DNA of 64,000 bases, taken from the NCBI GenBank assembly GCA_000934665.2, contig KZ537981.1, positions 124,001 through 188,000 on the forward strand. The letters are read 5' to 3'. This document shows, one piece after another, positions 1,676 to 37,928 of this stretch. The stretch is from Catajapyx aquilonaris. Lineage: Eukaryota. The notes below the pieces were generated by a model. It ran no database searches. It was given only the letters and a program-made list of their open reading frames with translations, and was not told the DNA's origin. Each line of letters starts with the position of its first letter. Position 1 is the stretch's first letter. A program made the translations under genes and the position numbers.

Positions 1676-2670
1676 CGTGCAATCTTCCGCCTGTTGTTGG
1701 GATGCAGCTCGTCGGCCGACTCCGGATCAACTTTTTGCAACTTTCTGTACATGTCCTGAGTGGAGCAGTCGGCCATGAACGACCCAGGTACGTCGTCATC
1801 GCTTCCATGGTCACCGCTGTTCTTTCGCTTCCTCTTGCCAACCAGCACGTCCCAAAGAAGAGACTCGATGTAGTAGTTTGTTCCGCCTACAACCACCGGC
1901 AGCTTCTGCTTGGACAGAAGGTCCTCCACCTGACTTACAGGTTAAGGAACCCGCATCATAAATGTGCCCATGGGTTTAGTCAAAATAATCATCACCGGAA
2001 TTATTCAGTATGGTGGTCAATATCTCGCCACATTTCTAATTGAAGGTCATATAGCTCAAATGCAAAGCAGCATTATCACATGGTTAAGGTCCAAAAAACC
2101 AGACTTATCACACCCCATTCAAGCGACTCATTCAGTCCTAGGTCAACCCGCTTCCTACTCGACCTCGGCTGACCGATAAGAACAAAGAAATTCTTTGTTT
2201 CACCTTATCTCGTCCCCTCCCTGCTGATCTGGAAAAAAGCCTCACAAATAGTCAGATAGCCTTCGATGTAAACATGAACTGGGGGCCAACCATAATCAAA
2301 AAAAGGATACAATTGGAAGCGCCTTGTCTCTAAAGTCAACGACGGTGTAGTTGGCCTGCGGTTCCAAGAAGTCCAGAAGATGATGCTTGACCTGCTTCCG
2401 CTCCTCTGGGGTCACCTTGTTCGTTATGACATCCAGCCCTTTGTACACCTGCGGGTTGAGGAGGCCATTAACTTTCCCTTTTTCTTTTTCGATCTCCAAT
2501 GTTCCTTTTTGGTTCGGGGCGGGGTGTGTCTCTACCTGCATGGAATCCGAGCTGATGACCTCCCCTTGGAACCTGGCCGCCAGCTGCAGCGCCAGCTTGG
2601 ACTTCCCGGTGCCAGTGGCACCCAAGACCACCACAACTGGCAAGGAGAAGCGTGCTCCACACGCCGCCAT
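1676..2670 (-). CDS. TRIT1: tRNA dimethylallyltransferase (IPP transferase), 5' part; the gene probably continues past the left edge of the window
   Basis: Exons 2670-2536, 2448-2311 and 1929-1676 with GT-AG boundaries in consistent phase. They encode the P-loop GATGTGKS, DSMQ|VYKGLDVITNK, HHLLDFL, VVGGTNYYIESLLW and LHPNNRRKIAR, all IPPT-family motifs. No further exon was recognised in 1-1675. Confidence 0.93.
1930..2310 (-). other. U12-type (minor spliceosome) GT-AG intron, intron 2 of TRIT1
   Basis: The 5' splice site reads GTATCCTTT from 2310. The branch point TTCCTTAAC (1949-1941) lies about 11 nt before the AG at 1931-1930. There is no polypyrimidine tract. Confidence 0.9.
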
Positions 2671-2766
2671 CTTGTCCGGTCGGTTGGAAGGCGCGTTCGT
2701 GCCGCTGCCACCCCCCCGAACAAACCGGGTGCGTTCCCAATCGCGCTTCGAGGAACAGCCGCGAAC

Positions 2767-2776
2767 GTGACGTCAC
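2767..2776. promoter_or_regulatory. CRE/ATF palindrome GTGACGTCAC about 100 bp upstream of the TRIT1 ATG
   Basis: Perfect 10-bp palindrome in the GC-rich region 5' of the start codon. Confidence 0.45.
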
Positions 2777-5544
2777 CCAGGGTAACCACCCTCTGAAGCG
2801 TCATGGTAGCCAAAATGCTGGCCTTTTTTTTCAAAAAAAATAATCATAATCATAATTTAATTTCAAAAAAATTACCTGGCTGCTAACGATGAATGAACTA
2901 CATTTTACGGACACTATCTTCGTACTGTGCACGTATGAAAGAAAAATGGTCATGCAATAGTTGATGTAACAAATAAGATACGTACGAAAACATGTTTAGA
3001 AAAAGTTGCGTAATTCCAAAATTAAAACAGTAGATAACCTAGCATATCACCTGTTACGTCATGCCCATTAACCTCTTGTTGTTTTGCTATCGACATATTT
3101 CATAACAGATAACTTATTAGATCGTAGGTCACCCCACAATTATGCGACCCCAAGATATAAGTTGTCGTCACTATTTTTTTGTACTTCAATGAAACTAATT
3201 AGCTGTTTTGATTTTTTTTGTGTGTGAACCTATAGCCCAAGTGTGCATTAGACACAACTTTCTGCGAAAATATTTTTTTGGCATGAAAGCGCAATTTGAG
3301 CGCCAGAAAATCAGCAATTAAAGGCGGATTAAGTGTGCCGGGCCGGACAGCCAGACGGACCAAAACCAAGGACAGACACTCCGCCTCCCCCCCCCCAAAA
3401 AAAAAAAAAAATGTGCAACAAAAAAAAAGGTGGCCGGAATCTACAAAGGTGGGCCAAATGGCAAGCAGAGAAAGTCACGCTCATCAGGAAGGGACCCAAA
3501 AAAAATGTCGTTTTTTTTGTTTCTTCCAAGGACTCTAGCCAACACAAAAAATACGCAAAAAGTGGACCAAAATTACTCGCACCTTCCGTAAATATGTGCT
3601 TCCTTCCTGGCCTGCTTGCCACCTGCGCAAATTCAGAACAAAAAAAGTGTGTAATTTAGTGTACTTATTGGGCCAGGTGCAGTGACCAAGTACACAAGCA
3701 CCATTTATCCTGTGGATATCTTCTGATTTATAGAGTCTGTGCCTATGTTTGTCCGAGATAGTGGCTGTCATCTATGTGAGGAATGTGGTACTACATGGAC
3801 AGTCCAGGTATAGGGCAGCTATAGAAATCTCCGAGGATGCTGCTGGTCATATGTTTTTCTTGACCAAAAACAACGCAATATGTGTGGGAGGATGGTTAAT
3901 GAGCAACAATCCAATTAGTTAGTTGCCAGGTGACATCCAGTCGCCGGAATTCCGATCGGACCAGAAACGAAGCTCGTGTATTCTTAGAAACTCCGCCTTC
4001 TTCTTCTCTGGTCTTTTTTACCTGTACCTATACTTGTTGACACTTCTTGTGCAACACAGACCTTTTGGTGCGGCCAAGTACAATCGACAACCCCGCTTCT
4101 TTTTTCTCTCTCCGCAGCGACTACCAGGCAACAATGTCACCAACTTTACACATACAGCCAGAGATGGAAATAGTCCGACCCAATTATTTCCTCTAGGTTC
4201 AAAAGCAGGCGTTTTCCTGTGCCCTCCGTTTGTTTGAGAACAGTGCTGGACATTCATGGTGTCTTACTGGGGGCGCCACGAGACGCTTAAGGCAAAAGAG
4301 CGAATCGCAATTGTATGACTCATACGGAGGCAAATTTGGATTCGCTCTTTTTGCCGCCAACTGCTCGTGTCCCCCATCAGTACTGCACAACCCTGATTGG
4401 CAGATGAATGAACCGTGCACAGGTTCGTAGCCCCTATACGAAAAAGGCGCCAGCTACGAACTATTTTCGACCCGGGTTCAGGAACCAACCCCAATTCTTT
4501 ACTCTCTATAGTCGCTAACCACCCGGCTTCAAAAATAAAACACTAGACAGATTGTTCACTCCAGCAACCGGATGCCCCTCTCCGTTGGCTGGCCATTGTC
4601 CATCGGCGCCGTTTGACCATTTGCCGACAATGTATGTATATGACTTCATTTTTTTTATATATACAGCATATATATTCCAGGGTGCTAGACCTCTCTCAAG
4701 GTGACGGGGCGAATGATTCACGACCCCGCCTGCTCATAGTCGCAGTCTATAGATAGTCCGCACGGTCTATCGCGCCATAAACACAAGGGATTCTCCCGCC
4801 AAAACAAAGAGCTCGTGCACCTCGCATAGATGGCGCACCACATGATGACTCGCCCCGGACAAAACATTGCTGCCAGATGCCAAATTTGGCAACGTTGCGC
4901 AACTTATTTGGCAGCGGGATAGATTGCGCATTCCATAGCATTTCGGATGGAATGGCGCGCCTCGTTTTCAAACCTTTGATAATGCGGGTTCTCCAACCTG
5001 GCTGGGGGGACTTGGCGCAGGATTCGATCTACGTCAAAGTGCTGGGGGGGGGGGGGGGTNAGCGTCGAGAGGGGATGAGGTTGTAGGGGGCAGTGGCCCG
5101 ACCCGGATCAATGCCGACGTCGGTGACGCCGTCAGTTGTGGAGGGGAGGGGAGGGGGAGTGCGGGGAAGAGAGGAGGGGGCATTGGCTGCAGGGGTGCTG
5201 CACTCAGGATATCCACCCCTGCCCCTGCCTGATTGTGGCCTCCAACCAACCCTTCCGTCCTCCCCCAACTTCAACCCAAAAAATACATCACACGTGACTC
5301 AAAACCCATGCAACAAACACATGCAATGAGACCCGCTCATAATTATCCATTTACATTACAAACGACAACAATGCGGACTATTCTCTAACGCGATGATAAT
5401 AATAATAATGGGTGAACGACCCTCTCTCTTGTCTACGCCGCAGGATTTTACTCTAGAGCTAATAGTACACATTACCCATCCCGCTATCAACACTGCATCG
5501 GGTTGTACCGCGCGCCAATTATTTTCTAACCACTTAAAATTAGC

Positions 5545-6075
5545 AGCTAATGTAGCCGAGACAGGCAACTGTTACAGTTGGCGAAAAAAATGTAGCTAAT
5601 AATAAGTAGCTAAATATTAATGTAGACACCACCGAAATAACTAATAGTAGCTAGAGCCAGTATCCTATATTCATAAGTTGGCGCCGAAATAACGCCTATA
5701 TAGCTATAATAGTAGCGATAGCCGGTAACTTATTAGTTATTAATAATAAGTTGGTGTCGAAATAGCCACGGCTAATTTAAGAGCTATAGCCGCTACAAGT
5801 AGCTGCGTAATGAGCAGTCTGGCGCCCCAAAAATAATGGCTATGCACAGCTATACTAATAAATGAGCTAAAGTAACATCTACAAATAACGGATTAGTTGC
5901 GTAACCAGTTGGTGCCGGAATACCTAGATAGTGTAGCTACTATCAAATAAGCTAAAAATTATTGAAGCCAATAAAAGCATTGTAGCAAATAATAGCTGTA
6001 TATTAGGAGCTATAACCACTACCAGTAGCTGCTTAAAAGCTGGCAGTTGTCGCCGAAATAATGGCTATAACCAAT
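5545..6075. repeat. Degenerate AT-rich tandem repeat (TAGCTA-rich, recurring AGTTGGCGCCGAAATA-like motif)
   Basis: Motif variants recur at about 5577, 5677, 5749, 5816, 5907 and 6045. The segment at 5701-5729 matches 55261-55290 in reverse complement. Confidence 0.6.
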
Positions 6076-9000
6076 TTAATATTTCAACTGCTCAACTTGA
6101 TCACTGGGAAAATCGTCGATTTCGTGTACACAGCCGGTTATGTCAAGTACCCGAAGTTGTTACCTTTGTGTGTATACAGTACCCCCCCCCCCCTCCCCAG
6201 CAATGAAGGTAAGTGCGCAGTGGGCATGTGTCGGTGCCAAGGGGTGCGGGTGCAGCAGACCAGGCAACAAACTGGTGGCCTTGGCAGAGGTTCGCCGACT
6301 CTCTTTTTCTCTCTAGTTCAGCGTCCCCCCTCCCCGTGTGTGTGGATGTGGATGGATGGTTGGATGGCTGATGAGGAGGACACGTACAGGAGGAGACTCG
6401 GGATGGTGGCCTCCAAGGCATGAACAGTGGGAGGTTGGAAGGGAATGGGTGGGTGGGGGAGAGCCCTTTCCTGCTGCCCCGGCGTTTGGATGGCCCCCTG
6501 ACCTAATTCTCGAAAAGCACGTGGGCATGTGTATGCACACACACACCCTCCCCAAAAAGGGACACGCATGGACGCCACCTGTTCTCATACGGCCAATCAG
6601 CTCATTTCGCGCGCAAAAGCCTCAGGAATAAAGGAAATGTTTTTTTCTCGCCAAAGTCGCGACAAAGCAACTTTCTCATTGCCAATATTGCAATTTTTTA
6701 ATCATCACCACCACCACCGAAGGAAAAAAAAAAAGTATTATCGAACGGCTCTGTCCGTCCGTCCGTCTGTGGACATGTATCAGGGCCTAAACCGCAAGAG
6801 ATACCAACAAACGGTTTTCGGATTCGGATTCAGCGTGACCAACACATGTTTAATGGCAGCCTTTCCGGGTGCACTCTATCCTCCAAGGTCGAGTCTGCAT
6901 GCTAATTTAGACATTATTTTCCTTGGGTTAGCAAAACGTAGTCCAATTTTAATTTCTTTGGCAATGATAAAAAAAAGTCTACTCGAATGTCGTGACTTCA
7001 TTATTTTGCCTAAGATACAACCGAATTTCCGGACGATCACTGCCTCAGAATAGTTGGCTGATTCTCCGGATTTTCCCTTCTTCAGCGCAACATTAGCTCG
7101 AGTCACACACACCCCCCCAGGTGAGTCAGTCTGGCAAAAAGGTCTGCAACCCGCCCTATACTCGATTGTAGGACGTGACCTCACCCAATCGTCCCAGACA
7201 CGCAATAGTCGAAACCTACATTACAAACACTTATCGATCTCCTAGATCACAGACCGAGATCGCGTGACATCCCGAGACAAGCCACCCCCTTCTATTGGCC
7301 CCTTTTCACTCGTCAAAAAAGTAAATAAAAATGTACACAGTAAGACTTACCCAGCAATATCCTCAATGAATTCCTTCTGGTAGTCTCCAGCAGTCTCCCC
7401 CGAAGATTTCCTTGATCCTTATCCTGTTTGTTCCCCAGCCCGTTGCGCAACTCACGAGGAACAAACCGTATCTTTCAGATAAGTTTGCGGCGGGAACTAC
7501 CAACTGGATGTGGTCATTTGGTCCTTGGGAATCTGCCCAATTAATAAATCCTGGGGGCCCATTGATATGCATCCAACTTGAACAACCAGGCAAAAAAAAA
7601 AAAAACTCCCAACAAGGAATGAAATAAAACAAACTCTTTTGCATCAACTTGATTTTTTTTTTTATCTTTCTATATTATATCGGACCCCTCAATCATATTT
7701 ATAGTAATAAAAGGAACTTTCGGGCTTTCTTTTTCTCTGTCCCGCTGTCACAACAAGCGGGTGGTAGAAAAAAGAAAATTGATACATTTAACATGGGTAG
7801 ATTACATTTGTGCAAGTTTGAGCCGATGACCCGTGCTGGCCTATGGGAGGTCAAACCGATCATGATTCCAAGTAACTTTTTTTAAACATGATTACGCAAC
7901 ATATAATTTCCTTATTCGTGATTCAAAGACCGGACCAGCACAAGTCATCCAGCCACTGAGGGAAGGAAACTACAAGTACATGAGGGGAGCTCTTCTTGCC
8001 TTTTTTTTTAAGCGAGTTCCTTCCCACAGGTTCCAAATAACTTGTTTGCCATATATAACATTTATAAAATAAAATGGGAGTAAAATAATAATTAAAAAAT
8101 AATAACAGGAAGTAAAGGAAAACGAAGGCCGACCTCGACCACTTTGGACGTGAAAAAACAAAACAAAAAATGTGGAGGCGGTACAAAAAGTATGGGGGTG
8201 TAAACATTTTTGGAATGTCCGGAACTGACTGAAATACACTTTACCAGAAATGTAATGTGTCGAGTGGTTATTTCAATTTGATGAATTATGCTGCTTTACT
8301 GATATGTGGCGCAACTTCCACGCCTGCTACCCTCAAAATGAACTCATAAATAAGCATCTGTGCAAACGTAGCAGGCGATGCAAACCGCATCATCAGAGTA
8401 TGTAGTTAAACCGTCCAGTGGTCAAAACAGTCGAGCGGACAAATGACAAGTGCATGCCGGACAGTCCCGGACAGACCAAAAAGCTTTTTCCATTATCTCT
8501 CTTTTTTTTGTTAAATAAATCTTTACAGAACATGATTGATAAACGGGGGTTATTTCCCTTGAGCTTTGTTTCTCTATCCATGATTTTTCTTAAATTCTCT
8601 CTTTTTTTTTGAAAAAATGGAGTATGTAAATGGCATGATTCGAATGAGTTTTTCTAAATATATATAAGCTCTCTTGATGTGTGAGTATCTGTCTGATTGG
8701 ATGCAAAAAAACGACATTTATCTAACATAAACATGGATAAAGACTGTACATGATTACGTGCTAGGAAAAAAAAATTCCCCTTTCTAAACTTTTCGTTACA
8801 TCCTCATGAAGTCACACTTTTTTAACCAACTTGATTCAGTTCAAGATATAACCAATAAAGATCTGGTATAAATTTGTCTTTTTTTTTCAGCGCATGATTT
8901 TGGGAAGACCAGGATTTATGGGGGAGGGGAGGGGAATTTTACTTGTCGGAACTGTGTGCCAATGGGAATTTTTCAAGGTGTTACTATTCTTATATAAGCA

Positions 9001-9571
9001 ACTGCTGGAGAGTAACTGCCGAATACTAACAATGACTGTCCTCTGGAATGCTGAACTACTGACATTCCGGATGCTACACAGCTTTTTAATCCTTTCTGAA
9101 TATTAATCGTTATCTCCTGGAGATGGCCTGCTTTTCTACCTACATCTTTTCCAGCAGAGGCAAAGTTCTTAAAACATGATTTTTATCCCATGATATGTTG
9201 CAAGACGACTACGGAGTGTACACAACACCGATCGAACCTGCCCAACATCTGCAAACACACACGATTCTTTGAAACACACACAACAGCGAGAGATGGAAAC
9301 GATGACATTATTCCACCTAACAGGCTAAAAGGACAAGCTTCGTTGACATCCCGCCAAAGATGACAGTAGGGGGGCGTTCAAGAAGCAGCAGGGGGCTGAG
9401 GTTTGTAACCCACACACTTATCTACCATTTTTTTAAAGGGTTGGGGGGACGAGGAGGAGTGGATCTGGAACGTGAAGGCAAGAAAAAAAAGTGACGCTAG
9501 ATCCAATTGGATAATAACACTGTGACGGCATAAGGATTAATAGGATGGGGGTATGTGCTGCGATTACTTTT

Positions 9572-12500
9572 TTAGTAGGGATGAACTCTGATGCTACTCT
9601 GAATCTGGTAGAGCCGCTTGAGGAGCTTGTCGTGGTTCCGCTGGAGCCTGGCCTTCTCCTTCTCCATGGCACGGTGACTGCTCCCAAGCTCCACGCAGAA
9701 CTGGGCCGCCCTCTCCAAGATCCTCACTTTAGGGGCCCGCTCATCTCCAGCCATCTCCGGGATCTGCCACGAGCAACACCCAACATTTTTACCACACCGT
9801 TCCTCCAGAGAGAGGACAAAAGATTGGAAGCTGCTGTTACCTGGTCCCGAAGATTGGCCAGCATCTTCCTCTGGGCGACACGCCTCTGCCTCTCCATGTT
9901 GTTGTGCATGTTCCTCTTTCCTGGCCCGACCATCTCATCGTCGTCGTCGTCGTCGTCGCTCATGGACTGCACGGCCGACCTCCTCCCGGTCTTCCTGGCC
10001 GTCTTTCGTCTGGTGCTGTTTGCTGGCCGTCCACGACCTTTGACCGGCTGGATGACGACAGCTCTCCTTGGCCTTCCAGTGGTAGCCGGTCGCTCCTGGA
10101 CACGTAGAAGAGCAGTGGTGGGCCTGTTGGTCATCAGGAGCGACCTGCCTGCCTGCGGGGCTTTCCTAGCCGCAGCCACGGCCATGGTCACCTGAAGCTG
10201 CCTGCGCACCAGTGCGCTCGGGTTGGCCGGAAGGGACGTCCTGGTCACTGCCTGCTGCGGCTGGACAGGCGTCATCGGCGGCGGAGACGGCGTCGGCGTC
10301 GTGGTCTCAATCTCCGGGAAGGTGGTCCTAGCTTGTGGGAGCAGCAGGCTGGTCCCTGGGGTCAAGATGGGTCTGGTCGTCCCCACGTTGACCACGTCAA
10401 TCTCCTCCTCTGTTAAAGAAGAAAAAAAGACGGCCAAGTTGAGACCCATGCTGGACACACGTGTTGCCCCGTGGCCATGAAAACTTGTCGGCCACATTCC
10501 TTTTACCCTAATTAACCAATCGAGGCCACCTCCACACCGGAGTAAGTACCATGAGGACAAACTGCCCTTGCACAACTTGCATTTCAGGCTGCCATAGCCC
10601 CTAATTACACACGCGACATATTCCCTTTCTTTTAACAGGTCGTCCAGTTTGCAAAATTTATTTACTGACAACCTAACCCGACGTGACGCAACTCAGGACC
10701 CCCAAGGTGACCTCAGATGCAGCTCCGCCAGGCCATTTCCCCTAAAATTTTCGACCCCCCGCATAAGGTGGTCCATCGGTTTTTTTTTGGTGGGGTGGTT
10801 TCGTCTAGAAGGCATTGATCTCGTTTTCCCGCCCTGCGAGTACTCTGCCTGGATCGATGCGGCGCCTGCTGCAGAGAGAAGCACTGGCCTTGACATTGGG
10901 GCGCCCCGTTCGACGCCCTCGACGCCTCCCCCCACCAACCCCACTCCGGACAGCACGCCAGTCCGCGCCCTATTCGACCCCGGACTCCCGGGTCTGCACT
11001 GCATCAACACCAAAGCCATGTAGCACTTCCCATTTCAATTACCTCAGGCAACTTTTGCCCGCCGTCTGCATTTTTGTTTTTTAAATTAAAGAGACTGGAT
11101 AAAAGGGGGGCGTCGTCGAATTCTTGACAAGGACGCTGTCCGACGGCCTGACCTTTCATTATTGCCCTCAGCCAGACGCCCCCCCCCCCCACTTTTTTTT
11201 TTGTAAAACGCATTTAAAAAAGACCAGTTTGGTGGCAGCTAAGTGTGACCATGCAGATGGAGGGCACCCTTCCCCCATCTACCACGCCCCGTCCCCTCAA
11301 AAACTGCATTTTAAAATATGCACAGGCGGGGAAGGGGGGGGGGGGTGCTTCTGTAAAAATTTTGACAACTAAGGCCAGCTGGTACACAAAACAGGGTGGT
11401 TCAACAAGCAAAACTCGCTTACAATGCGTCCCAAGCTTGTAATAATCACTGCATGGAGAATGCATGTTTATTTGTTTCTCATAACAGGCTTATTCTCTCC
11501 GTCTGATGTTTGGCCGTCCTGATAGTATCGCCATCTCTCGCCCGACCTGAGAGTGGCAGGGGTGTGCAGAGGGAGGGTGCGTCATCTGTGCCCGAAGAAA
11601 AATACTACGGGGTAAATCGGCGGGCCATCTCATTTAATTGTCGCTGCCATACTGATAGTAGGGTTTTTTTTCCTCCAGATTTTGGCAACGGGTTCGCTAT
11701 AAGTTTCATATGATCTGCCAACTGGTGCATTTTTCCGCCCCAAGTGTGCGGAAATGAACCCATTCCAAGACAGTGCTCGGGTGAAAGTGCGTGCATCGCT
11801 TCCGGTGTACACTGTGCACACTGGTCGGGACAGACAGCATTGTACCCCCCCTTCTTTACCCGCCCATCCATCCCCCCTCCGCCCCTGTAGCTCGAAGTGA
11901 AGGGCACTTTCACAACCAGTCGTCATTATCGTCGGCAACTATTTAAAAAAAAAAAAAAAACGTCGCCCCGAAGAATAGAGCAAGTGGACCACCACCATCA
12001 ACCATTGGTTTTGCCCACTTGTTGCTCGAACACGTGGGAAGGAATCTCTCACACACACCGGCACTGGCCTTCATGCAGGTCATACCTTCTCGCACGACTA
12101 TATGGACCGGTTTCATAGTCCGGGATGTCGCGAATCCAGTCCATCATGCAAAAGCGCACTTTTCCAGAGACGCTACCGTAAAAAAATAAGGGGGCGGGGC
12201 ATGGACAAGCGGTGGGCGTGGCTCGACTCAGGTCGCTCATGGTAGCCAACTGTTTTCACAAGTTCGCTATACTTTTATCTTGCCATGGCTGACACATAAT
12301 TTTCCGGCGTGAGCTGTGCCAGTGCCAATCTCCACTCGCGCCGCCCACGTCTGAAAATTCCCGACAATTACGTCCAACCGTGTACCGGGTGCGACGGCCA
12401 CGATGCACATGTACCAAGGGTTTACGACACTTAGGTCGGCGTAACGGGTCCTCTTTTTTTTCTTTCCTTCTAGATGGCCATCGCTGCCCCGCTTCTTTTT

Positions 12501-14883: not shown

Positions 14884-14930
<47 letters not shown>

Positions 14931-17900: not shown

Positions 17901-18210
17901 GGTTGCTTTTTTTAAAAAGGCATGTTTACGCCTTCGCGATTTAAGCCTCGGTCGCGCGACCAGACGCTTTGCGACCGGAAAAAAATGTGGTCGCGCGACC
18001 GAGGCTCAAATTATTTAGGGCGTCGTCGTCGTAAACAGTGGTTTTGCGTCCCATAAGTTAAGCATGTCTCCATTGGACTATCGGACCGGCGTCTGTCTCT
18101 CCGGCGGCTAAAAAGGCTAAATAAATCACACGGTGTGAATGCACTCACAGAGTCTCCGCTTCGCTCCCTGGGCGACTCGGAATCCGGCTGCTGGCCGGGG
18201 TCCAACACAT
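9572..18210 (-). CDS. Myc: Myc bHLH-LZ transcription factor, about 540 aa, 4 coding exons
   Basis: Exons 18210-18149, 16517-15718, 10409-9841 and 9763-9572, with phases 2, 1 and 0 consistent. Motifs: MBI PGDDMWKKF..LTPPSTPP; MBII RHDCMWAG; DHSY; TPSDS|EEEIDVV (MBIIIb, split by a phase-1 intron); basic region KRNMHNNMERQRR; LRDQ|IPE..APKVRIL; heptad zipper L-M-L-L-I. The first coding exon is less certain; alternative internal ATGs are at 16468 and 16438. Confidence 0.93.
14890..14930. repeat. (CT)n microsatellite in Myc intron 2
   Basis: Uninterrupted CT dinucleotide run; a shorter (GA)n run is at about 13516-13540. Confidence 0.9.
17944..18006. repeat. Perfect 19-bp inverted repeat (hairpin) in Myc intron 1
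   Basis: AGCCTCGGTCGCGCGACCA (17944-17962) and TGGTCGCGCGACCGAGGCT (17988-18006). Each arm contains the self-palindrome GGTCGCGCGACC. Confidence 0.9.
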
Positions 18211-18230
18211 GCACACTCTCTCGATATACA

Positions 18231-18642: not shown

Positions 18643-18795
18643 TATTACACGGCGGGGGCCGGCTCAAGGCAAAAGCAATGCATGTGTACTTTTACAAACG
18701 CCGGCGTATCAACACCATTGTTCAACGAGTGCTAATTAATTTCCATTGTAAAAAGGTGCCCGATGCATTGCCACGTACGCGCTGCTCTGCCACTT

Positions 18796-18798
<3 letters not shown>

Positions 18799-18847
<49 letters not shown>

Positions 18848-19009: not shown

Positions 19010-19047
<38 letters not shown>
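18799..19047. repeat. (GT)n microsatellite at 18799-18844 and (CA)n microsatellite at 19016-19047
   Basis: Alternating purine-pyrimidine runs in opposite orientation. Confidence 0.9.
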
Positions 19048-27592: not shown

Positions 27593-27690
27593 CTCTCTAT
27601 ATATAAATCAGAAACTTTGTCTGGATGTCCGGGCTACCTAACCCACTTCCGGACTACTGAGAGTACTGAAACTTGACACTCTGATGTCTT
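27593..27690 (+). mobile_element. About 85-bp interspersed repeat resembling a non-autonomous Helitron 5' end
   Basis: TCTCTATATATAAA..AGAAACTTTGTCTG..GGGCTACC..GGACTACTGAGAGTACTGAAA. Homologous copies at 49560-49830 (minus, about 3 in tandem) and 52671-52845 (plus, about 2 in tandem). The Helitron label is inferred only from the TC start and TATATAAA-GTTTGT pattern. Confidence 0.55.
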
Positions 27691-27778
27691 GCGTGCCCGC
27701 TGATTGAGAGAAAAGTACTGAAGAGAGAAAAACTGCACTCGTTTGAGTCTATAAATGCCCAATAAATAAACCAACCAT

Positions 27779-28043
27779 ACCGAAGCAGTTGGTGTAGTGG
27801 TTAAGGAGTTCGACTGCTAATCGGGAGGTCGGTTCGAATGCCGGTGCCGGCAACTCTAACCGTGGTTTTATGTGGTTTCCCACGGTTCCTCCAGGAGAAT
27901 TCCGGAGTTATTTCCGTAAAAATAGGCCACAGCCGCTTTCTTCCGTCCCTATCATATCCCCAAAAGCTAAGTAAAAGTGAAAGCAAAGAGTTCCAGACAA
28001 AAAAATCCCCCCTAAAGAGCCGCCGGCTTATCACGAGGTACGA

Positions 28044-28121
<78 letters not shown>

Positions 28122-28130
28122 AATATTATT
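27779..28130 (+). mobile_element. tRNA-derived SINE with (TTA)n tail and 14-bp target-site duplication
   Basis: A-box TGGTGTAGTGG, B-box GGTTCGAATGCC, body GTGGTTTCCC..TCCAGG..AGGCCACAGCCG and a (TTA)n tail. TSD AATAAACCAACCAT at 27765-27778 and 28131-28144. A second copy is at 57507-57815. Confidence 0.88.
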
Positions 28131-31100
28131 AATAAACCAACCATCTGGCTGCCATATATGTAATCGTTTTATGTCGAGTACAAGCTAAGCTATAGTTTCT
28201 GTATGAAATATGACCGGTTGAGGTCACCCAAATCTGATTGACGCCAGTTGGCTATACAGAAGAGTAGCTGGGATCTCCCGATAAAGAGATGGTATGTTAC
28301 CCCTGTGAAAAGAGGGGGATGCCTGACGCAGCCGAAGCAGACCCTTCCTTTTGAGATCTCGCTTCTTTTTATCTATAAAAGAAGTCGACTCCTGCCCGCA
28401 GGGGCATCAGGGCACCGGAAATGAGCCCTCCCCACTTTTCCCTTTACCATCCGCCGGAATGGCCCGAAGTCAGGTAAGTACATGGTCGGAACAGATGGAT
28501 CACACACACACCGGACCAGCAGCAACGCTGGACAAATCCGGCCATATGGTCAGCCTGAACAACGCAACAAGAAGTGCGGGGAAAAAAACCGAAGAAAGGA
28601 AACCATCAGGACCATCCCAAAGACATCGGGAGGTCATCAAACAAAAAGAATTGGGAAAAAATTGAAGAGACTCGAATCTTTGCACACAGCCATTTCCGGT
28701 CGGATTCACGCGACAAACTAGGTAGGCTACTAAGGAAGTGGCCCACTTGTCTATCTTCAGTTCGTACCACAATATTGAGAATGTTCATGCTGATGATACA
28801 CCCTGCACATTTTGTACCATTTCCGAGTGTTCTGTGGGACAATATTAATCTTGAAACAATTCGGTTGTAATATTCCCAGAACAGACGCCACTGGACCTGA
28901 GAGTCCAGTCTGAAGACCCTGCAGCAAAATATTTCCGGAAAATGAACCGGTCATAGAGCAGGGCGTAGATCAGCAGCTGACAGGCTACCTGCAGCCCTCC
29001 CAAAACCCAAAGGGCAACATAAAGGAGCGGGCTGGGATCACCCTTTTATGCAATCAAAGCTTTTCTTCTTCTACCTCCCTGGCCTCTTTGTGGCCATTTT
29101 TTTTCTCTCCTTCTCCTGTGTACCCCTCCCCAACTTGCTCTTTTTCTTTTTCTTTTTTTGGGGGTTTTGCACAAGGCAGGTGTGGCGGGGGCACAAAACA
29201 CCCACCGCGGCCCCACATCCTTACACTTCTTACATCTTCTTGCGCCGGCCAGCAGCTGTCGAGCCAGCATGGTCAGAATAAGGGAGGAAAAAAAAAGCTG
29301 GATTGTATATAGTGGAAGAGAGTGGGGTCAAACCCAGATGACCTCTCCTTCTCCCGCAGGCGAGGGTATCCATCGCAGCCGTTTTCACTTTCTGTGTCCC
29401 CCTCCTCAGGACACATGATATGAGCTGCTATTGACCGCAGCTGAGGTCAGCAAACCGGGTGGTAAACAAATCGCTATCAGCTGCTTCTATAGGGCGATTC
29501 GGTTACCCAAAAATCTTTCGCTGGTTCCTCTGAAAGCCAAAGATTCTGGCGTCTGGTCGTGGAAAGATGCAGGGACTTCACCCCAAGAGCAGCCAAAACA
29601 AACCAATGTGCTTTCACAGCAAGAGTGAGAGACGACTTGGGCGCACAACAAGGGCATTTGTGTGCAACAGCGTCACACCTGCAGCCGCGTCTCTTGGGAA
29701 TAATCAGATGCTTCGGCTCATCCCTCCCAAACAATATATTTAAAATAATTAATGAATAAAATATAAGCTCCATACTTCCGTTTCGGTTTGTCATTCCTCT
29801 CTCCCCCCCCCCCCTCTCCCTGTAGGTCAATCGGGTCAGATCCCACAACACGAATTGTTACTTTGGCAGGTGTTTCCTCAGGAGAAATAAATAGCAGTGG
29901 AATTGGACAGGAAATACGAATCGGAAGGACAGACCGGTTTTTGTGTGGCCGTGTGCGGGCCCAGCACCATTGGGGGGCAGCATGATTTTTTTTTACCAGA
30001 ATAATAATAAAACCAAAAAAACATTTAGGGGTGACCCCGCGGGTAGGCGCGTGCCGTTTCGCCCCCGTGAAGGTGACGTCACAATCCAAGAGGTCAAACT
30101 TCACCTGCGGATTTCACGCTTGGCGACCCTCAATTAATAACCTACCAGCCCTCGCTAATGGCGTCTCGTGACCAACAGCCCGGTTAACAACATGCGAATA
30201 ATTTTTTTTTCCCTATCCTCAACCATATTTTTATCTGTGCACCTCATTACCCGCAGGTCATCAAACACAAAAAATTGCGCCTTCGCAATTAACGCCATAT
30301 CGGAAAAAAATATACAAGACCGCGCCCAGTCCAAAAAATCTGTTACCCACAAATCAGCCGTTGTTTTTTAAAAAAATTACAGATTAAAAAAAATGCAAAC
30401 CCTGTAATCAACGATACAGTCTGAGCTACTGTTAGCAACAACAAATTGTGCCGTTCCTTTTTTTTAAAACTAAGATATGCAAATCCGGCTCCCGAAAAAT
30501 GAAGCAACCCTGTAATCAGATTAGGCGAACAACATTTGGAGAGAAAAAAAAAAAATGGAGCGCAAGAAGTACGGCAAATGATGCCCGTTTCACACGAATC
30601 AAAGCAAAAACAATGAATTCATGTTGTTACTCCCAACTCCCCAAAAAATAGAGAAAAAACCCCACATGCAGCACACGTGATATGACCACATAAGTGTTAT
30701 TAGCTCCTCATTTTTTTTTTTTGGTACCTCCTCCCACCCAACTCCTCTTATATATATATTTTTTACAGATGTGTTTGACAGCAGGCAGCAGGTGGAGATG
30801 CCACCTGTTTGTTACCGCACCTGCCTCCATCAGGTCCATAAAAAAAATGAGGGAGGGAGGCACACATCACATCACACATAGTACGTGGAAAATACATGTC
30901 GTGGTAGGGGAGGACCAAGCACCTGTCGGTTGAGGTGCCAGGTCAACGATTCGGACAAGGTCATACTCAGGATGAGTCACATTCTATGTACTGGGTGAAT
31001 TTTCTAACATTATTGCAATGTACAGATCCCCCCCCCCCTCCCCCCTCCAAAAAAAAAGAGGCCGCTTCCTGACCCAATCCATCACCCCCTGAAACTGGAT

Positions 31101-32760
31101 GCCCAATTACCGCCCGCATTTAGACGCAATTGACAGTTAACAAGTGCGTGCCCACTGAACCTGCCAGATGGGACACACAGCACATGGAGAAGAGCTGGAC
31201 TCGAGAGAACAAAATTTGAGTTTGGTTCAAGATTGGACAAGATGATTCACTTCCTTGCGCCTTACCAATCAAGAGGCCCCCATCAGTCATCATTCGACAA
31301 AATGTGACTACATAATGACTTAACAGCATCGGAATCGGGTCAAAAGGCCAAATCACAGCACGTGCCTAGTTCCACGGCCAAATTGTTGCATAACTTGCTA
31401 CAATGTGCCTCAATGTGTAAACATGGATGAAACTTGAACTGTGTGTGTGTGTGTATGTATGTATTTGATCAATTGCAGCACATTTCAGTTGCAGTAATGT
31501 ACACAGCAACAATCTTTCGAAGGTCACTGTCAGCGAATAACACGTCTCCCGCCTGGACTCTTCCATTTATTTTGCGATACCGTAACCTTCGAGGTTGAAA
31601 ATACCCCAGCTGATTAGTGCCCAACATTGTATACACACGCGTTTGTTATATATGGGGGTGCGAACTATTCGCACAAACACATCAGGCAAGGTAGTCCCTT
31701 GGCCTAGGCCTAGTTGGCATCAGCCCAATTCGACCGCAGACTATGGTTTTTTTTATGCATTTCGGTGACCATAACTTATGGCTATGTGGTCTGGGTCCTG
31801 TCCGCCAAAAAGGCAGCGCTCGCCGCATAAACAAACTCTGAGTCACTCAACCGGAACGAACAAACTATTTTTACAAAAAAAAGTAATATCATTAAAAAAA
31901 AAAAGGTTGGCAATGGTTGGCATAGTTTGCATTGTTGCAACGAATCTAATTTCTGAGACCATGAGTAGCATGCATCGGTGGGTATGAGCAGTGGTGGCTC
32001 ACCGAAATGTTTTCTTCCTCATATCACCAGCCCTTTGGGACACCACAGTGATGACTAAGTGGAGGTCAGTTGGGGTCCTGCGGATGAGTGACAAGCAGGA
32101 CAGCTATCAAGACCTGTCACAAACTGAGCAGGCTGCCCATTCATTAGAGACCAATATCGCCCATCCCACACAATCTCCTTCCAGCAGCCACAAAGATACT
32201 TGCTGGATAGGACTTACCACCACCCCCAACCACGTTTGGCTCTCCAGGATGAAGGCAGCGATGGATTGCAGTTGGCTAAAAGAGTCAATGGGACACGTAC
32301 AGTAGATCTCTCTGTATACTGTATGCCCACTTGGGGCTTTCTTTTGTGTCACAGGGTTGCAGGGTGTATGCCATTGTGTACACATACACTCATTGCGTTT
32401 GCCTGTTTGGGTAAATGCATAATGGTGCAGACAAATACCTCTCCCTTCTGTTCAGTGGGACACCTTGTCTGCTTCAAAAAAAGTAATGATGCAGTACTCT
32501 TCCAGGATTGACTTTGCTGTATATGGCACGATTTTTCATTGAAAGTGGTTCGTAATAAAATTATGAGATGAAAATGTCTGAGTGCTGAAAACATGGACTC
32601 GAAAGTTGAGACCAGTTGAGACCTTTTTTTCCCAATTTCAAATGCTCACAGCAGGAACTATAATTACTATATCACTCAAAAAAAAAAAAAAAAACAATTG
32701 GTGACGATTGTGCATTTGGTTTCATTATAATATCATCTCCATCTTTTTGAGTGACATAGT

Positions 32761-32849
32761 CCCCACGAGCTATGCTGGTGGCAGCTACGTCTCCTGGCAG
32801 GGTCTCCCAAGCAGGACAGATCTTTGAGGGTAGGAGAGACAGACAAAGT
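32761..32849 (+). mobile_element. Fragment resembling the conserved 5' region of RTE-clade LINEs
   Basis: GAGCTATG...CAGGGTCTCCCAAG.CAGGACAGATC...AGACAAAG resembles the conserved 5' block of RTE/BovB/Rex3-type elements (recognised from memory, not by search). No RT ORF follows. Confidence 0.5.
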
Positions 32850-33541
32850 AATCTTATGCTGTGATTGCATGATTGTTATGTCTTTCAATATATGACTTTT
32901 GACATGATGAATTATGTAAAACAAAAAAATTGTTTGCAGTGTTATGTCGTTATGACAGTCAGCATTTGACATATTCCAGTCAAAGAACCAAATGAACTCC
33001 AGTTTTAGCTCTCTTTTCTCGTCGTTTCTGTCTCCATGTGTGTCCCACCTTTGTGGCTTCTGATAGCCATAGTTGCTTTGGCTCCACAGTCGGAGGGAAA
33101 TGTTGCCAAGTTTCGGCAAGAGGTTCACTCTCATTATGCAATGAAATAATTTGCTGGTTGCACAATATGGCAACATTGCATTTTTCATTATTTGAAGGGA
33201 AAAAAAATCGCTTGTGAACAATGTACACAATTGACCACCATCTGCCACCATCAGAAAAATTAAAATTAAAATTCTGGAAGGTTCCTATATAATGCCTGCT
33301 GTGGCCATTTGAAGTTTTTTAAACAAATTGTGAGATTTGGAGCGCATATTTTTAACTACTCACAGTCAGACAGCAGATAATTTAGAAACTGTGCTCCTCA
33401 CTTTTCCATAATCTAATATTACCAGGACCAACTTCCAACAAAATGGCGCCATCCCAGCATGACTCCAAAAGGATGCCCACTGGACAATATGGAATATGTT
33501 GAATCCGCTTCCAACCCCTGGCCCCGGGGTTTGCAGGGTGC

Positions 33542-35109
33542 TCATGATCCGGCATCAAACCTTTGAGTAGTGACAATAAACTGGATCAATCGGGGCGACA
33601 TCATTCCTTTTACCTTGTTGTTGTGCTGGTAGTGTGGGACTTCCTTGGCTCTGACAACCTTCCTTTCCCGGCCCGACCTGACCTGGCCTGGTCCGGGCAG
33701 CAGCACGCGATGCAGGGCTTCCACCAGCTGCTCATCCCTTCCCGCATCGTCTTCGCCCCTTCCCGGAGACGCGGGCCGCCCCTGGTCCTCATCAGGTACT
33801 GCGAAAGACGCGGTCCGAACGACGTTCGATTCGTCCGAACCGGTTGGAACGCTCAGGATGGTTTCAGAAGCATCCGCCGCGGCGTCTGTGGCGCTGCGGT
33901 CGGTAGGTGGCGCCCTCTCGCGGCCGATCGGGGAACTAACGGGGTCGGCGGAAACTTCAAACTGCGGACCGGACATTTCAACGCTGTCCACTCTTGGTAT
34001 GGCCACTGGAGTGTCCATCTCTGGGTCGACAAGTGCGGACAAGCCGGCATCAGCGGTACCCCCAAGTACGGCGTCGATTTCCTGCTTCATCAAATCGGAC
34101 GTACCGGTACGGTCAGCTTCAGGTACTGACCCGCCGGTGCTCATGACACTCTCAACGACGATTCCGGCGTCCCCTGAGGTACGGGTACGGATAGCACCGT
34201 CAGAAACTGACTCGTCGGTACTTAGGAGACGTTCGACAATGTTTGCATTGTCTTCTGATAGTACAGTGTCCACAATGGTTGAAACTGAACTGGGCATGAC
34301 ATAATGTGTGGTGGACTCCTGTTGCATCGGTGTACCAGCTGGCATACCGGTACTGCTAACCAGGGTTGTGGTACCAGTAGTTGTAGCGGTGTCTTCATGC
34401 ACGTCGATGAAATCACCGGACAACAACAATGCAGCAGGTACGTGACACAGCTGTCCAGCGTACTCGTTGGGACACTCACACTTTTGGATAATGGACACAT
34501 GTGCACCGTCCTTACCATCAGACACAACATGTTCTTCGGTGTGGCAGGTACCAGGTCCGCATGGGTTGTACGTAGAGCAGTACGATGCACGGACCGACCG
34601 AAGCTCCGGGATGCAGAAGGTCAGACCTGTGGTACACAATTCAGTACAAAGGTTATGTGACATTAAATGTACGGTACGTACCAGCATCTGGATATTGCGC
34701 GTGAACATGACGCGCATGACACCGACACATGTTGGAGCGTGTCCGTACCCTGCCTGGATCGCATCCATCGAGGACCACCACACGTTTGTCCTTGCAGCCT
34801 CTGAAGTACACATCCTGTCCGAAGCTCCAGGTCTGCAGTACTGAGCACTGGCACATACCAAGCAGGTCCACTGCTGCGTGTTGCGATACACCTTCGGCAA
34901 AGACCTACACCAGAGTTTGGATTTTCAGTTTGAACTACAAGGTAACTTACGGAGCAGGTGTCTTCATTGTCCAGACATGCTACGTAACATCGGACAGGCG
35001 GCGGGTTCAACTCATGTTCCGCCGATACCCAGCGGAAGTACTTGGTCCATACCGGATCGTTGTCTGAACATATCGTCGGCAACAATGCCATCAAGAGCAA
35101 TACATACAT
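33542..35109 (-). CDS. Secreted Cys-rich protein with one EGF-like domain and a Ser/Thr/acidic mucin-like region, about 488 aa (3' end uncertain)
   Basis: Exons 35109-34951, 34904-34682 and 34626-33542, joined by a 46-nt intron (GTAAGT..TAG) and a 55-nt intron (GTACGT..CAG) in consistent phase. These splice together three overlapping ORFs in different frames. Signal peptide MYVLLLMALLPTICS; EGF motif C-x5-C-x4-C-x21-C-x-C-x8-C. Confidence 0.72.
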
Positions 35110-36608
35110 CGCTGGATGTCATACAAATATTTTTGTGTGTGTAAAAGAAGACACTTCAACAGCGTATCGATGACAACATGTATACATTGTTACCTCACAA
35201 CAATCAACGTACAGAGGTATGGTAACTCTCATTATTTTTTATTGATTCGAAAACAACTGTACAGTCAGAGAGAAAATCATCCAATTTGAGTGACGTTCTT
35301 TGTTTTTCACTACATGTCATGTTAACATAATAATTAAATTAGTTCGTTCGTGCAATAAATAATTTTAGAGCCTGAAGTGTAGCGAGCCAAAAATTTTTTA
35401 AAAATACTAATTACCGGTGTCAAATAATCCAAATTGCTCGAGTTAAAATGACATGTGGTGCAATTGCGAACATAACGTGATATGTACATTGGCTTTGGTA
35501 CTGACAGTTTAAAAAAAGATGTTTAAATTAAAATTAATATCTAAAAAAAAATTGTGACCAAAATATCTAACCATACATTAGGCTTCCTCGTGAACTAAGT
35601 TTCAATTACTCTCTCTCTAATTGTGACATGAGCCATGCAAAAAAAAGGCCTCGGATATTCTGCATGTTTTGTTGACTAGCTCGTTTGCCTTAATTACACT
35701 TGCTTTTAATGAAGGCGAGTCTTTTTAAGGCATTGGTACAAATCGGGGGTGATGCTTCGTCATTTAAAAAGGTGCAAAAATATTTGGCTCAGACGGCTCT
35801 TTTTGTCAGCTTTGCCGGCAAAGAAAGCATATGAAGTGAACCAAAAAACAAAAAACAAAGTGCGTACAAGTCGTGGATTCCATTCCCGAAGATTCAACCT
35901 TACAATTAATTTGATGCTAACGAGGGCAACTCTAACACTTTCCGATTATCACGTCTGATAACAACCATCACAAACCAGCGAATTTTGACAACAATTTTTA
36001 AAACTGCAATCCTTTTAAAACACATTGTCATCATTATTCCACGACCAAACAACATGTTAAAAAATGTTCGTGTGAGACATACACACTAGGCCTAACAATA
36101 TTTTACAAAATTTTTTATCTGAAAGCAACTTGGCAAGTTCCGTGGTATTAAAATTAATCCGACTAATTGTGAGGGTAAATCTAAATATTTGTAATAATTA
36201 ATTCCGTACATGTACGCCAGGTAATAATACTCGTTTTAACATTGTAGACACTTCATGTTAAATGTTAAATGGTACGTAAAATATCCAACAATGCGCACTA
36301 AACAAAAAAAAAACTTGCCTTTTGTTACGCACATACACAATATCACATACACATACACACTCTTCGCAACAAAAAACATTCGATCCAATTACATTAGTGA
36401 CCAGACTGATGGCTAAAAAATACTGCGTCAATTGTCCATACGCACATGAAACTTATAAAAAAAACAGCACTGCGATGCATTCGTCCCACATTTTGGCAAA
36501 AAATTATCCTGAAGCATTTGTAAGAAGATTTTATACACAAGGCATGGTCGGTTTTTGCGGAAACAAACGGTTGGAATGCTGCGCAACAATCCGTTAATGC
36601 TGCTGTAG

Positions 36609-37928
36609 TTATGCGGCTAGAAGAGTCTTGATGTTCTTCGGTGTGTTCTCGTCATTCAGGTGCTTTGTCGTGTACCTGCAACGTCGCATTGTTTTAAGAA
36701 TTGTTGCAGAATTGCGGTTACGAATTTACCTTAAAGCGTTGAGAAGTCCTTCCGACTTGGCCGTGGGCTGCTCCTTTAGAACCTTGACGCATCCTTTCAC
36801 CTGCGGAGAGAACAGCGTTAAACATAATAGTTTTGCAGCGAATTGGACGAACTCACATCGACATTAGAGGCCTTAACGAACGCTCCTGAAGGATGCACAT
36901 GGTCATACAGGATTATCAGTCCCACCATGACTCGTAGGACGAAGTGTTGCGTCTCCTCTCTCCGGAAGCGAGCAATCAGATCCGGATTCTCAAGCATACG
37001 CTGGGACACCTTTGCCATCGTGCTGAGTGTCTCCGTCGTGTCTTCTATAGGTATATCCTTATTCTGTAATGAAAAATGTGCAATAATTATTGGCCCATGG
37101 GACGATCACACGAACTGGTACCTCCGACACAAATTTGGTGGTGGCATCGCTGAGAACTTTGAGCATTGGCGTCGCATGTGCGTAAAACAGCGACATCCTG
37201 TTGGCCATCTTATCGCTAACCTCCCCGTTGCATTCAAAGGCGTCTCGACTGGCCATCCGTTGCCTCGTAATAGTACGTCTGTAGTAGCTAAAGTCGTTCT
37301 GAATCGCCGGCATCGTCATCTGCAAGAAAGTCGGTTAGCCAAGTTCGCTTCCTGTCTGCAAGCGTACCTTATACTCATCAAACTTGAGCACAAACTCCAG
37401 AATCTCGGCAAACTGCTTCACTAACGCCTGCTGCGTCTCCAAGTGTTGGGTCGGCGTCATCGGCCCGGAGCACAGTTGGTACAGAATTTTCGGTACGATG
37501 CACTCTGCAATTAAAGTCGGATTAGCTTGCCGTATTCGTTGGCTCACACAGAACGCATACCCAGCTCTATGGAGAACTCGTAGAATCGCTTCAGCTTCAT
37601 AACGAGCGGCACGACTGCTTCCCACGCACGCTCCTGCATGTCCTCGGACGGGTTGGATATGGCTTCACGTATTTCCTTCCCGGCTCCCTTGTACGACTGC
37701 AGGTCCTCCAGGATAGACTCGGAGCTCTCTAGAACCATCTGTACTTCCTCAAACGTATCCTCCTCCAATTCGGTCGGCTCCGCATCTGTTAAGTACTCGT
37801 TAAACACACATCGTAAAGAGCCAAATAAACATGTAGCGCATACTTTCAAAGTCCAGGAACACGTCGTACTTCTGCGGAGAGCAGCAGTTGGAGTCGTCCC
37901 TGGCCAGAAGCCTCAGGAGGTTGCCCAT
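36609..37928 (-). CDS. FAM49: FAM49/CYRI (CYFIP-related Rac1 interactor, DUF1394), 329 aa, 7 exons
   Basis: Exons 37928-37844, 37785-37561, 37504-37368, 37319-37122, 37063-36857, 36800-36730 and 36675-36609. Motifs: MGNLL (myristoylation Gly), [62 protein letters not shown]. Confidence 0.96.

Follow-up and report, generated by a model that had tools for sequence, protein, structure and literature searches.

Myc with TRIT1 and CYRI as close neighbours in Catajapyx aquilonaris: a probable retained ancestral Myc block

How old is the company that a Myc gene keeps? A stretch of 64,000 nucleotides from Catajapyx aquilonaris (assembly GCA_000934665.2, contig KZ537981.1, positions 124,001 to 188,000 of the forward strand), the whole of which is here called the window, carries on its minus strand, in the order in which they are read, a CYRI (FAM49) gene, a lineage-specific gene for a secreted protein, Myc and TRIT1, all co-oriented and spanning 37928 to 1676. 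This is in our view a real, expressed neighbourhood and, most likely, a retained ancestral bilaterian Myc block that would have persisted via the Myc regulatory landscape. The three genes had been placed within about 36 kb by a first-pass annotation of the sequence, and the minus-strand models do fall within that span. That annotation had Myc directly upstream of TRIT1 on the same strand with a gap of about 7 kb, in agreement with the 6,901 bp found from the Myc stop to the TRIT1 ATG. It also had FAM49 further upstream with one orphan gene between; the arrangement stands, though the distance claimed, about 18 kb, is to be replaced by 20,140 bp from the Myc ATG to the CYRI stop.

The three genes and the continuity of the sequence that joins them

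Features of the window were located with a list of stop-to-stop open reading frames (ORFs) and with Pfam, and the gene models were assembled by coordinates from the DNA read (Table 1). Orthology of the three proteins, on which the first-pass annotation depended, is borne out by a tree for CYRI, by the best matches of TRIT1 and by the alignment of motifs for Myc.

Table 1. Features of the Myc neighbourhood (positions are those of the window)
Feature	Position	Strand	Remarks
TRIT1 coding exon 3	1676..1929	-	Pfam IPPT E 1.7e-15; X5 contig piece on 1676-1927
TRIT1 coding exon 2	2311..2448	-	AG/GT borders; Pfam IPPT profile positions 1-47
TRIT1 coding exon 1	2536..2670	-	ATG 2670; P-loop GATGTGKS; GT donor; Pfam IPPT/AAA on the enclosing ORF; tblastn with insect TRIT1
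Myc-TRIT1 intergenic stretch	2671..7767	.	about 5.1 kb after discounting the probable Myc 3' untranslated region; high-copy repeat at about 6671-7337
Probable Myc 3' untranslated region	7768..9571	-	X5 contigs on 7768-9390 (depth 47) and 9376-9763 overlap, continuous with the last coding exon
Myc last coding exon	9572..9763	-	loop, helix 2, leucine zipper, stop codon; border as in X5 contig 28
Myc middle coding exon	9841..10409	-	begins EEEIDVV, ends in basic region and helix 1 (KRNMHNNMERQRR...); both borders as in X5 contig 28
Myc large intron	10410..15717	-	5,308 nt; contains the sole N-run (15399-15408); skipped by X5 contig 28
Myc first coding exon	15718..16517	-	ATG 16468, coding part 16468-15718; motifs DMWKKF (Myc box I) and HDCMWAG (Myc box II); exon reaches about 16517
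Stretch 5' of Myc without recognisable gene	16518..33541	.	17 kb; ORF, Pfam and Rfam checks; spacing
Orphan gene between Myc and CYRI	~33542..35109	-	460-codon open frame; ATG and first intron read; exon structure partly worked out
CYRI/FAM49, seven exons	37928-37844, 37785-37561, 37504-37368, 37319-37122, 37063-36857, 36800-36730, 36675-36609	-	

The Myc model has three coding exons, parted by introns of 5,308 and 77 nt with canonical splice sites, and specifies a protein of 503 aa. Towards its N-terminus DMWKKF and HDCMWAGLCCSEEH align with DDIW(K/Q)KF and HDCMWAG.C.S.EH of Leptinotarsa 'diminutive' and of Apis and Microplitis 'Myc-B'; the names Myc box I and Myc box II are those which we take to belong to the DMWKKF and HDCMWAG motifs. 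The C-terminus is a basic helix-loop-helix (bHLH) followed by a zipper, running KRNMHNNMERQRR ... ERAPKVRILERAA ... zipper. When the spliced product is aligned over its whole length with insect Myc, the motifs in common are DMWKKF, HDCMWAG, SDHSY, LGVQTPSDSEEEIDVV, KRNxHNNMERQRR, APKVxIL and the zipper, and local blastp with it gives E 1.6e-32 for Microplitis Myc-B, 7e-26 for Leptinotarsa diminutive and 6e-26 for Apis mellifera LOC100576392 isoform X1, which clusters with 'Myc-B'. The exons were also searched singly. For the middle one, a word-indexed protein search yielded a single match at E <= 0.001 among 6,040 candidates, and that is Leptinotarsa Myc. HMMER with exon 1 yielded 11 matches at E <= 0.001, four of them with HLH or Myc_N domains and two sitting in clusters that have Apis and Microplitis 'Myc-B' as named members. 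For the last exon the three PDB matches at E below 0.01 are all MYC chains (best E 0.0017), and of six at E <= 1 four are MYC, the other two being coiled coils. Pfam found no family at E <= 0.01 on the separate Myc exons, where Myc_N does not score, and, since the 77-nt intron splits HLH, the half-domain scores no better than E 0.59 for it. This null is uninformative, both for that splitting of the bHLH and because a beetle Myc (Leptinotarsa, P0001) is also without a Myc_N match and scores HLH only. Judged by these comparisons of predicted protein, the assignment of the gene as the Myc orthologue holds.

The short intron is an observation in its own right. It occupies 9764-9840 and divides the bHLH between helix 1 (…LANLRDQ) and the loop (IPEMAGDE…), with borders confirmed by the X5 contig 28 described below; vertebrate MYC is not known to have an intron at the matching position.

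Of TRIT1 only the first ~175 residues are in the window. Since tblastn with three insect TRIT1 proteins found nothing of the rest of the gene in 1-1675, it runs off the window start, with its 3' two-thirds beyond, and with them any C-terminal zinc finger of the kind that the eukaryotic enzymes have. The introns present are all GT-AG, and the Pfam IPPT matches, at E 1.2e-14 and 1.7e-15, cover profile positions 1-126 of 243. Exon 3 meets, in PDB, bacterial tRNA isopentenylpyrophosphate transferases and the tRNA isopentenyltransferase 3eph, and in a protein search it has 214 matches at E <= 0.001 among 273 candidates; PF01715 (IPPT) is present in all of the best 120 of these 214, and most of the named ones are animal tRNA dimethylallyltransferases. 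As a predicted TRIT1 orthologue the gene likewise holds.

CYRI is complete, with 329 aa and six GT-AG introns of 48-58 nt. Pfam CYRIA-B_Rac1-bd (PF07159) matches four of its raw exon ORFs at E 1e-16 to 3e-29, in order, over profile positions 7-265 of 301, and exon 5 matches solved CYRI-B structures in PDB at E 1.5e-22. A search with exon 2 gave 95 proteins at E <= 0.001 among 121 candidates, every one with PF07159; the best matches are insect CYRI at 64-73% identity and barnacles at 65-66%, and the spliced protein is 81% identical to one orthopteran CYRI over 329 columns. In a quick maximum-likelihood tree of 25 rows with one outgroup, in which vertebrate CYRIB is represented by a fish sequence only, the window protein falls within an arthropod clade (Shimodaira-Hasegawa-like approximate likelihood-ratio test, SH-aLRT, 99) and outside the insect clade (99), with a separate vertebrate clade (99) formed by four CYRIA rows and one fish FAM49Ba row. 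That placement makes it a single pro-orthologue, on the arthropod side, of the vertebrate CYRI genes, and points to a non-insect arthropod or to a hexapod lineage of early branching. The protein begins MGNLL, its M1 and G2 being invariant in a 13-sequence alignment, and the glycine at position 2 we take to be a putative myristoylation site.

Two further items concern CYRI. Its near-contiguous exons and shifting frames made a decayed retrocopy a candidate, now excluded, the six canonical GT-AG introns restoring one frame of 329 aa. A metagenome scan with the CYRI alignment kept 80 loci, of which none has a TRIT1 or Myc match at E <= 1e-3; 76 of the 80 are under 2.5 kb, and they are mostly full-length uninterrupted matches, transcript-like.

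How continuous is the sequence on which the linkage depends? The window has one run of ten Ns, each of its flanks being otherwise free of N-runs, and eight single Ns (5060, 12683, 14931, 16623, 24506, 39088, 58507, 60564); those inspected fall within or beside stretches of one nucleotide or of low complexity and resemble doubtful base calls, not gaps. Contigs were aligned to 1-20000 from four DNA runs of one sample, the probable source of the assembly, and from X5, which is of another sample and study. The X5 contigs are treated as transcript-derived only because they skip introns at exact borders. X5 contig 28 (1,237 letters), unbroken in its own coordinates, lies on 9376-9763, 9841-10409 and 15718-15952; these borders are exactly those of the predicted Myc exons, so that both Myc introns are skipped and, with the large one, the two sides of the 10-N run are joined. 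Contig 29 lies on 16009-16517 beginning only at its 14th letter, which implies a non-coding Myc exon upstream. A further X5 contig ends at 1676, the predicted border of TRIT1 exon 3. Myc and one TRIT1 exon are expressed and spliced. None of the pieces listed for the probable source sample crosses 15399-15408, so that its contigs add no evidence on long-range contiguity; the pieces also break off near repeats. The many 'joints' near 15395 in those contigs have sides of 19-22 letters and were dismissed as repeat effects.

The linkage in other insects and in human

Two insect proteins whose source sequences are of identical size to the base were taken to be on the same record, which shows co-location, not adjacency, and accession numbering served, by assumption, as a proxy for gene order. 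By this measure Myc and TRIT1 share a record in all six comparable species (Apis florea, with a record of 506,015 bp, A. cerana, A. mellifera, A. laboriosa, A. dorsata and Leptinotarsa decemlineata), as do Myc and CYRI in three of three (A. florea, A. cerana and Microplitis demolitor) and CYRI and TRIT1 in eight of nine (A. florea, A. cerana, Camponotus floridanus, Temnothorax americanus, Ooceraea biroi, Chelonus insularis, Ischnura elegans and Hetaerina americana). Left out of the counts were Pogonomyrmex and Wasmannia, whose entries pool several assemblies, and Trichogramma kaykai, with a TRIT1 lacking a contig. Absence of the linkage from all other invertebrate lineages, which the first-pass annotation had named as a sign of chance, is thus not what was found.

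Accession numbers are often close. In Leptinotarsa Myc has XP_023013030-33 and TRIT1 XP_023013034-35, and in A. florea the two end in 646 and 648 respectively. Camponotus floridanus has CYRI as EFN60432 and TRIT1 as EFN60433 (also XP_011267829/831 versus 832/834/835), Temnothorax longispinosus has TRIT1 as TGZ57423 and CYRI as TGZ57424, and the Pogonomyrmex numbers end in 000 for TRIT1 and 002 for CYRI; the CYRI and TRIT1 numbers are five apart in Ooceraea and ~200 apart in Chelonus. Names can also be telling. Three full-length TRIT1 proteins of Megachile rotundata (P0120, P0244, P0245) were named by NCBI 'bHLH transcription factor Myc isoform X1/X2/X4'; they have IPPT and a zinc finger and no Myc sequence, and the older versions of the records read tRNA dimethylallyltransferase. 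The naming probably arose when two adjacent co-oriented genes were merged in annotation. These data suggest that the genes have stayed together in bees, ants, a braconid wasp and a beetle, with the hymenopteran order, from co-location and accession order, probably being Myc-TRIT1-CYRI.

What of human? There we take TRIT1 to be 3' of MYCL and co-oriented with it, and CYRIA and CYRIB to be 3' of, and convergent with, MYCN and MYC respectively. The first-pass annotation had listed the same neighbours, of which MYC with FAM49B is a presumed linkage, the contact described below being an interaction over a distance. For the other two, the excerpts of the supplement of Touceda-Suarez et al. 2020 (PMC7530604) are in accord: Table S3 has a MYCL-TRIT1 distance of 11,921 bp and, as the next gene to MYCN, ENSG00000197872, which is FAM49A, at 602,453 bp, the next gene to MYC being at 2,006,763 bp. 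In the excerpt of Table S1, [MYCL=TRIT1] is an ancient regulatory-block pair, number 35.0, linked in five non-vertebrate species and with MYCN and MYC as unlinked paralogues; its key begins 'GRS', its species key is 01011101 and its 'SINGLE BS' mark makes TRIT1 the sole bystander (PMC7530604). The catalogue, as excerpted, consists of 595 pairs from Irimia et al. 2012, 18 from McEwen et al. 2006 and 1,538 from a new search (PMC7530604), and we take the 'GRS' tag to denote the pairs of Irimia et al. 2012.

The Myc-TRIT1 half of the linkage has therefore already been published as ancient, and the novelty implied by the first-pass annotation was set too high, MYCL=TRIT1 being pair 35.0 in the excerpted table (PMC7530604). 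The CYRI half seems a modest new addition. A full-text literature search found no paper on Myc-CYRI/FAM49 linkage, which unread supplementary pair lists may hold, and found none on Myc-TRIT1 linkage in main texts. The main text of Irimia et al. 2012 makes no mention of Myc, TRIT1 or FAM49 (PMC3514665), and in the supplement of PMC8809688 TRIT1, FAM49, CYRI, MYCL and MYCN do not occur.

The window resembles pair 35.0 in having the same two families adjacent, with Myc upstream of and co-oriented with TRIT1, and in setting a transcription-factor gene beside a housekeeping 'bystander'; it differs in adding CYRI, ~20 kb off on the other side of Myc. It is also like the multi-bystander DIFF_OHNO blocks (for example HEY2=HDDC2 and HEY1=MRPS28) in the excerpts of PMC7530604, in which a two-bystander invertebrate locus is divided among vertebrate transcription-factor paralogues, here with TRIT1 staying with MYCL, and CYRIA and CYRIB with MYCN and MYC. 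In contrast to those blocks, Myc-CYRI is not in the list as excerpted, and human CYRI is at least 0.6 Mb from Myc and not directly beside it. A third likeness is to the Islet-Scaper model, in which bystander erosion makes gene deserts (PMC7530604, excerpts), since MYC and MYCN are there scored as having lost the bystander and have huge flanking gaps. If the ancestral order was Myc-TRIT1-CYRI, the MYC and MYCN gaps are where TRIT1 copies would have eroded; by contrast with Islet-Scaper, erosion of TRIT1 in these deserts is something that we infer.

Spacing, repeats and neighbouring genes

The locus is compact, with one conspicuous exception. Other intergenic gaps in the window are of 1.5-5.1 kb, whereas 17 kb 5' of Myc have no recognisable gene: the stretch holds four ORFs of 148-183 aa (276 aa if ORFs of introns are included), none with a Pfam family at E <= 1, and an Rfam scan gave no family at gathering score. 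Small X5 pieces of low depth lie there at ~17343-18676 and 19458-19664, and may belong to the 5' non-coding exon that the Myc model lacks or represent non-coding transcripts of their own. The summed contig depth of the DNA runs is ~1900-2400 at ~6671-7337 versus ~20-75 in most other bins, with lesser values of 310-360 at 11340-12006, 120-150 at 15342-16008 and 185-225 at 17343-18009. These peaks point to repeated elements in the Myc-TRIT1 gap, where one is very abundant, in the Myc intron and 5' of Myc.

The orphan gene between Myc and CYRI has a product with a signal-peptide-like start, a cysteine-rich EGF-like stretch and a tail rich in Ser, Thr and Asp; it has no Pfam family at E <= 0.01 over 35109-33542, and a protein Atlas search gave no usable match. 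Beyond CYRI are a gene with an XRCC1 N-terminal domain (42759-43996, minus strand, Pfam E 1.7e-26) and, after that domain, two short motifs like Cys/His zinc fingers (ECPIC…H…C), and a MAP3K12 (DLK)-like kinase gene (~46420-49165, minus strand), the kinase ORF matching human MAP3K12 structures at E 1.6e-75. Neither has a bearing on the human Myc regions. All six recognisable genes of 1-49165 (TRIT1, Myc, the orphan, CYRI, the XRCC1_N gene and the MAP3K12-like gene) are on the minus strand.

A short element is present in two copies, 57450-57760 and 27811-28026, with 84% identity over 229 nt. The former overlaps a weak Rfam tRNA match at 57515-57582 (31.2 bits, gathering score 29), where ARAGORN calls none, and the latter, at 27.8 kb, has a long (ATT)n run right after it; the element looks like a tRNA-derived short interspersed element. 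Tandem arrays are at 54285-54722 (period ~27 nt), 41466-41742 (~20 nt) and 38343-39032 (~70 nt).

An ancestral block, its upkeep and the alternatives

Could genes from the human Myc regions have gathered around this Myc by chance? A rough estimate with assumed gene numbers, for two of ten candidate human-neighbour families being within two genes of Myc, gives p ~3e-6 genome-wide and ~7e-4 within one linkage group of 1000 freely shuffled genes. A chance juxtaposition of Myc, TRIT1 and CYRI is unlikely. Blocks of this kind are recognised by unrelated orthologous genes being adjacent in distant lineages, and for Myc-TRIT1 that is so in the window, in Leptinotarsa and Apis, both by accession order, and in human. 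For Myc or TRIT1 with CYRI it is so in the window, in Hymenoptera and in human, with MYCN and FAM49A as next genes. A second mark, a transcription-factor gene flanked by unrelated genes, is present as well, with Myc between TRIT1 as a tRNA-modifying enzyme and CYRI as a Rac1 regulator, functions taken from the family names. The contention of the first-pass annotation, that the block is older than the protostome-deuterostome split, is supported in so far as Myc-TRIT1 is in print as ancient; for the CYRI half the comparison that would bear it out takes in predicted genes of arthropods and human only.

How may the present arrangements have come about? The ancestral order would have been a Myc-TRIT1 tandem and then a convergent CYRI, and two vertebrate whole-genome duplications would have left TRIT1 beside MYCL only, with CYRI beside MYCN (as CYRIA) and MYC (as CYRIB). 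That bystanders are kept beside some paralogues and lost beside others is a known feature of genomic regulatory blocks, as in the excerpts of PMC7530604 for multi-bystander blocks, and the pattern here would be of that kind. Because the order Myc-TRIT1-CYRI fits both Hymenoptera and human, that of the window is more likely the rearranged one, and a single inversion of the Myc and TRIT1 segment in its lineage would give the order and orientations seen. The first-pass annotation rightly called for at least one local rearrangement, which is now placed more probably in the lineage of the window than in vertebrates. As to upkeep, the Myc regulatory landscape would be spread over the neighbouring genes, with the consequence that selection would remove breakpoints between them; the domain would take in TRIT1 as a bystander and have its outer limit at CYRI. 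In blocks of this kind the regulatory elements of the target gene lie within or beyond the bystanders. The indirect hints of such a layout are two. One is the 17 gene-free kb 5' of Myc together with the 5.3-kb intron in an otherwise compact locus, which would fit a wide regulatory landscape of Myc. The other is from human cells, where the super-enhancer of MYC makes contact with an enhancer close to FAM49B and a single CTCF site has an effect on both mRNAs, according to an excerpt of PMC8752836. The very large flanks of MYC and MYCN on the side where TRIT1 would have been also fit the block.

A number of points weigh against an ancestral block under such constraint. The insect counts speak of co-location, with gene order assumed from numbering, and their comparators are all insects, mostly Hymenoptera, and so are not independent samples. 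In Bacillus rossius, the sole exception among the nine species, CYRI and TRIT1 are on different contigs, and in the two damselflies they are on one chromosome with accessions ~500-600 apart. In Drosophila melanogaster Myc, TRIT1 and CYRI are not known to be linked. That some insects have loosened or lost the linkage argues against strict constraint, the CYRI introns are too short to hold enhancers, and, the position of CYRI relative to Myc being different in the window from that in the inferred hymenopteran and human order, whatever constraint there is leaves the order free. FAM49 occurs three times in the supplement of PMC7530604, the passages shown being a flank row and a FAM49A/FAM49B ohnologue row, and a Myc-FAM49 pair is not among its FAM49 passages, the de novo pair table included.

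Would an ancestral block kept by nothing more than luck, in slowly rearranging lineages and with neither selective nor regulatory constraint, serve as well? Several of the points just given favour it: a gene order in the window that is not the one inferred for Hymenoptera, the linkage that is looser in Odonata and absent in Bacillus rossius, and CYRI introns of 48-58 nt in which enhancers cannot be held. However, were genes freely scrambled, both pairings would be unlikely to survive across arthropods as well as in two or three paralogous regions of human, and the gene-free stretch on the CYRI-facing side of Myc is unusually large. Moreover, Myc-TRIT1 is in a metazoan-wide survey of conserved gene pairs for which its authors, in the excerpts of PMC3514665 and PMC7530604, invoke cis-regulatory constraint. 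Such survival by chance is unlikely, while meriting more credence than the alternatives that follow.

That only Myc-TRIT1 is ancestral, CYRI having arrived near Myc independently in arthropods and vertebrates, is a good deal less probable still. In its favour are the lack of CYRI as a Myc partner in the FAM49 passages of the PMC7530604 supplement, a CYRI comparison that covers Arthropoda and Chordata only, and the position of CYRI, on one side of Myc in the window and on the other in human. Independent arrival so close as two genes from Myc, though, would be a matter of a few per thousand per lineage even in one linkage group. Both human CYRI paralogues flank Myc paralogues, so that the Myc-CYRI linkage predates the vertebrate duplications, and the inferred hymenopteran order has CYRI on the side that it has in human. 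An assembly artefact joining unrelated pieces is scarcely credible: the 10-N run does have TRIT1 and Myc exons 2-3 on one side and CYRI with Myc exon 1 on the other, with no listed source-run piece across it and with pieces interrupted near repeats, but a contig of another sample joins Myc exon 1 to exons 2-3 at exact splice borders, the flanks are otherwise free of N-runs and the same pairs are co-located in other arthropods.

With a retained Myc block preferred, a more specific version of it may be put forward tentatively, as one that may well prove wrong. The bilaterian ancestor would have had a Myc-TRIT1-CYRI block with CYRI at the edge of the domain, copies of TRIT1 would have been lost by decay from the MYC-CYRIB and MYCN-CYRIA intervals after the vertebrate genome duplications, and the gene deserts of 8q24 and 2p24 would be what remains of the TRIT1 loci and of the old enhancer landscape. 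If this is true, TRIT1 remnants or duplicated conserved elements are to be expected between MYC or MYCN and the adjacent CYRI gene, and a contact domain is to be expected to end at CYRI.

The gain is incremental, a further example of a known phenomenon and not a new principle. Even so, the addition of CYRI would give a multi-bystander block parcelled among MYC, MYCN and MYCL, and with it an evolutionary frame for the vertebrate deserts. The 8q24 desert of MYC is among the most studied non-coding regions in cancer genetics, and a 36-kb arthropod locus with the same neighbours would offer a model, compact and easy to work with, for the regulatory domain of the ancestral Myc.

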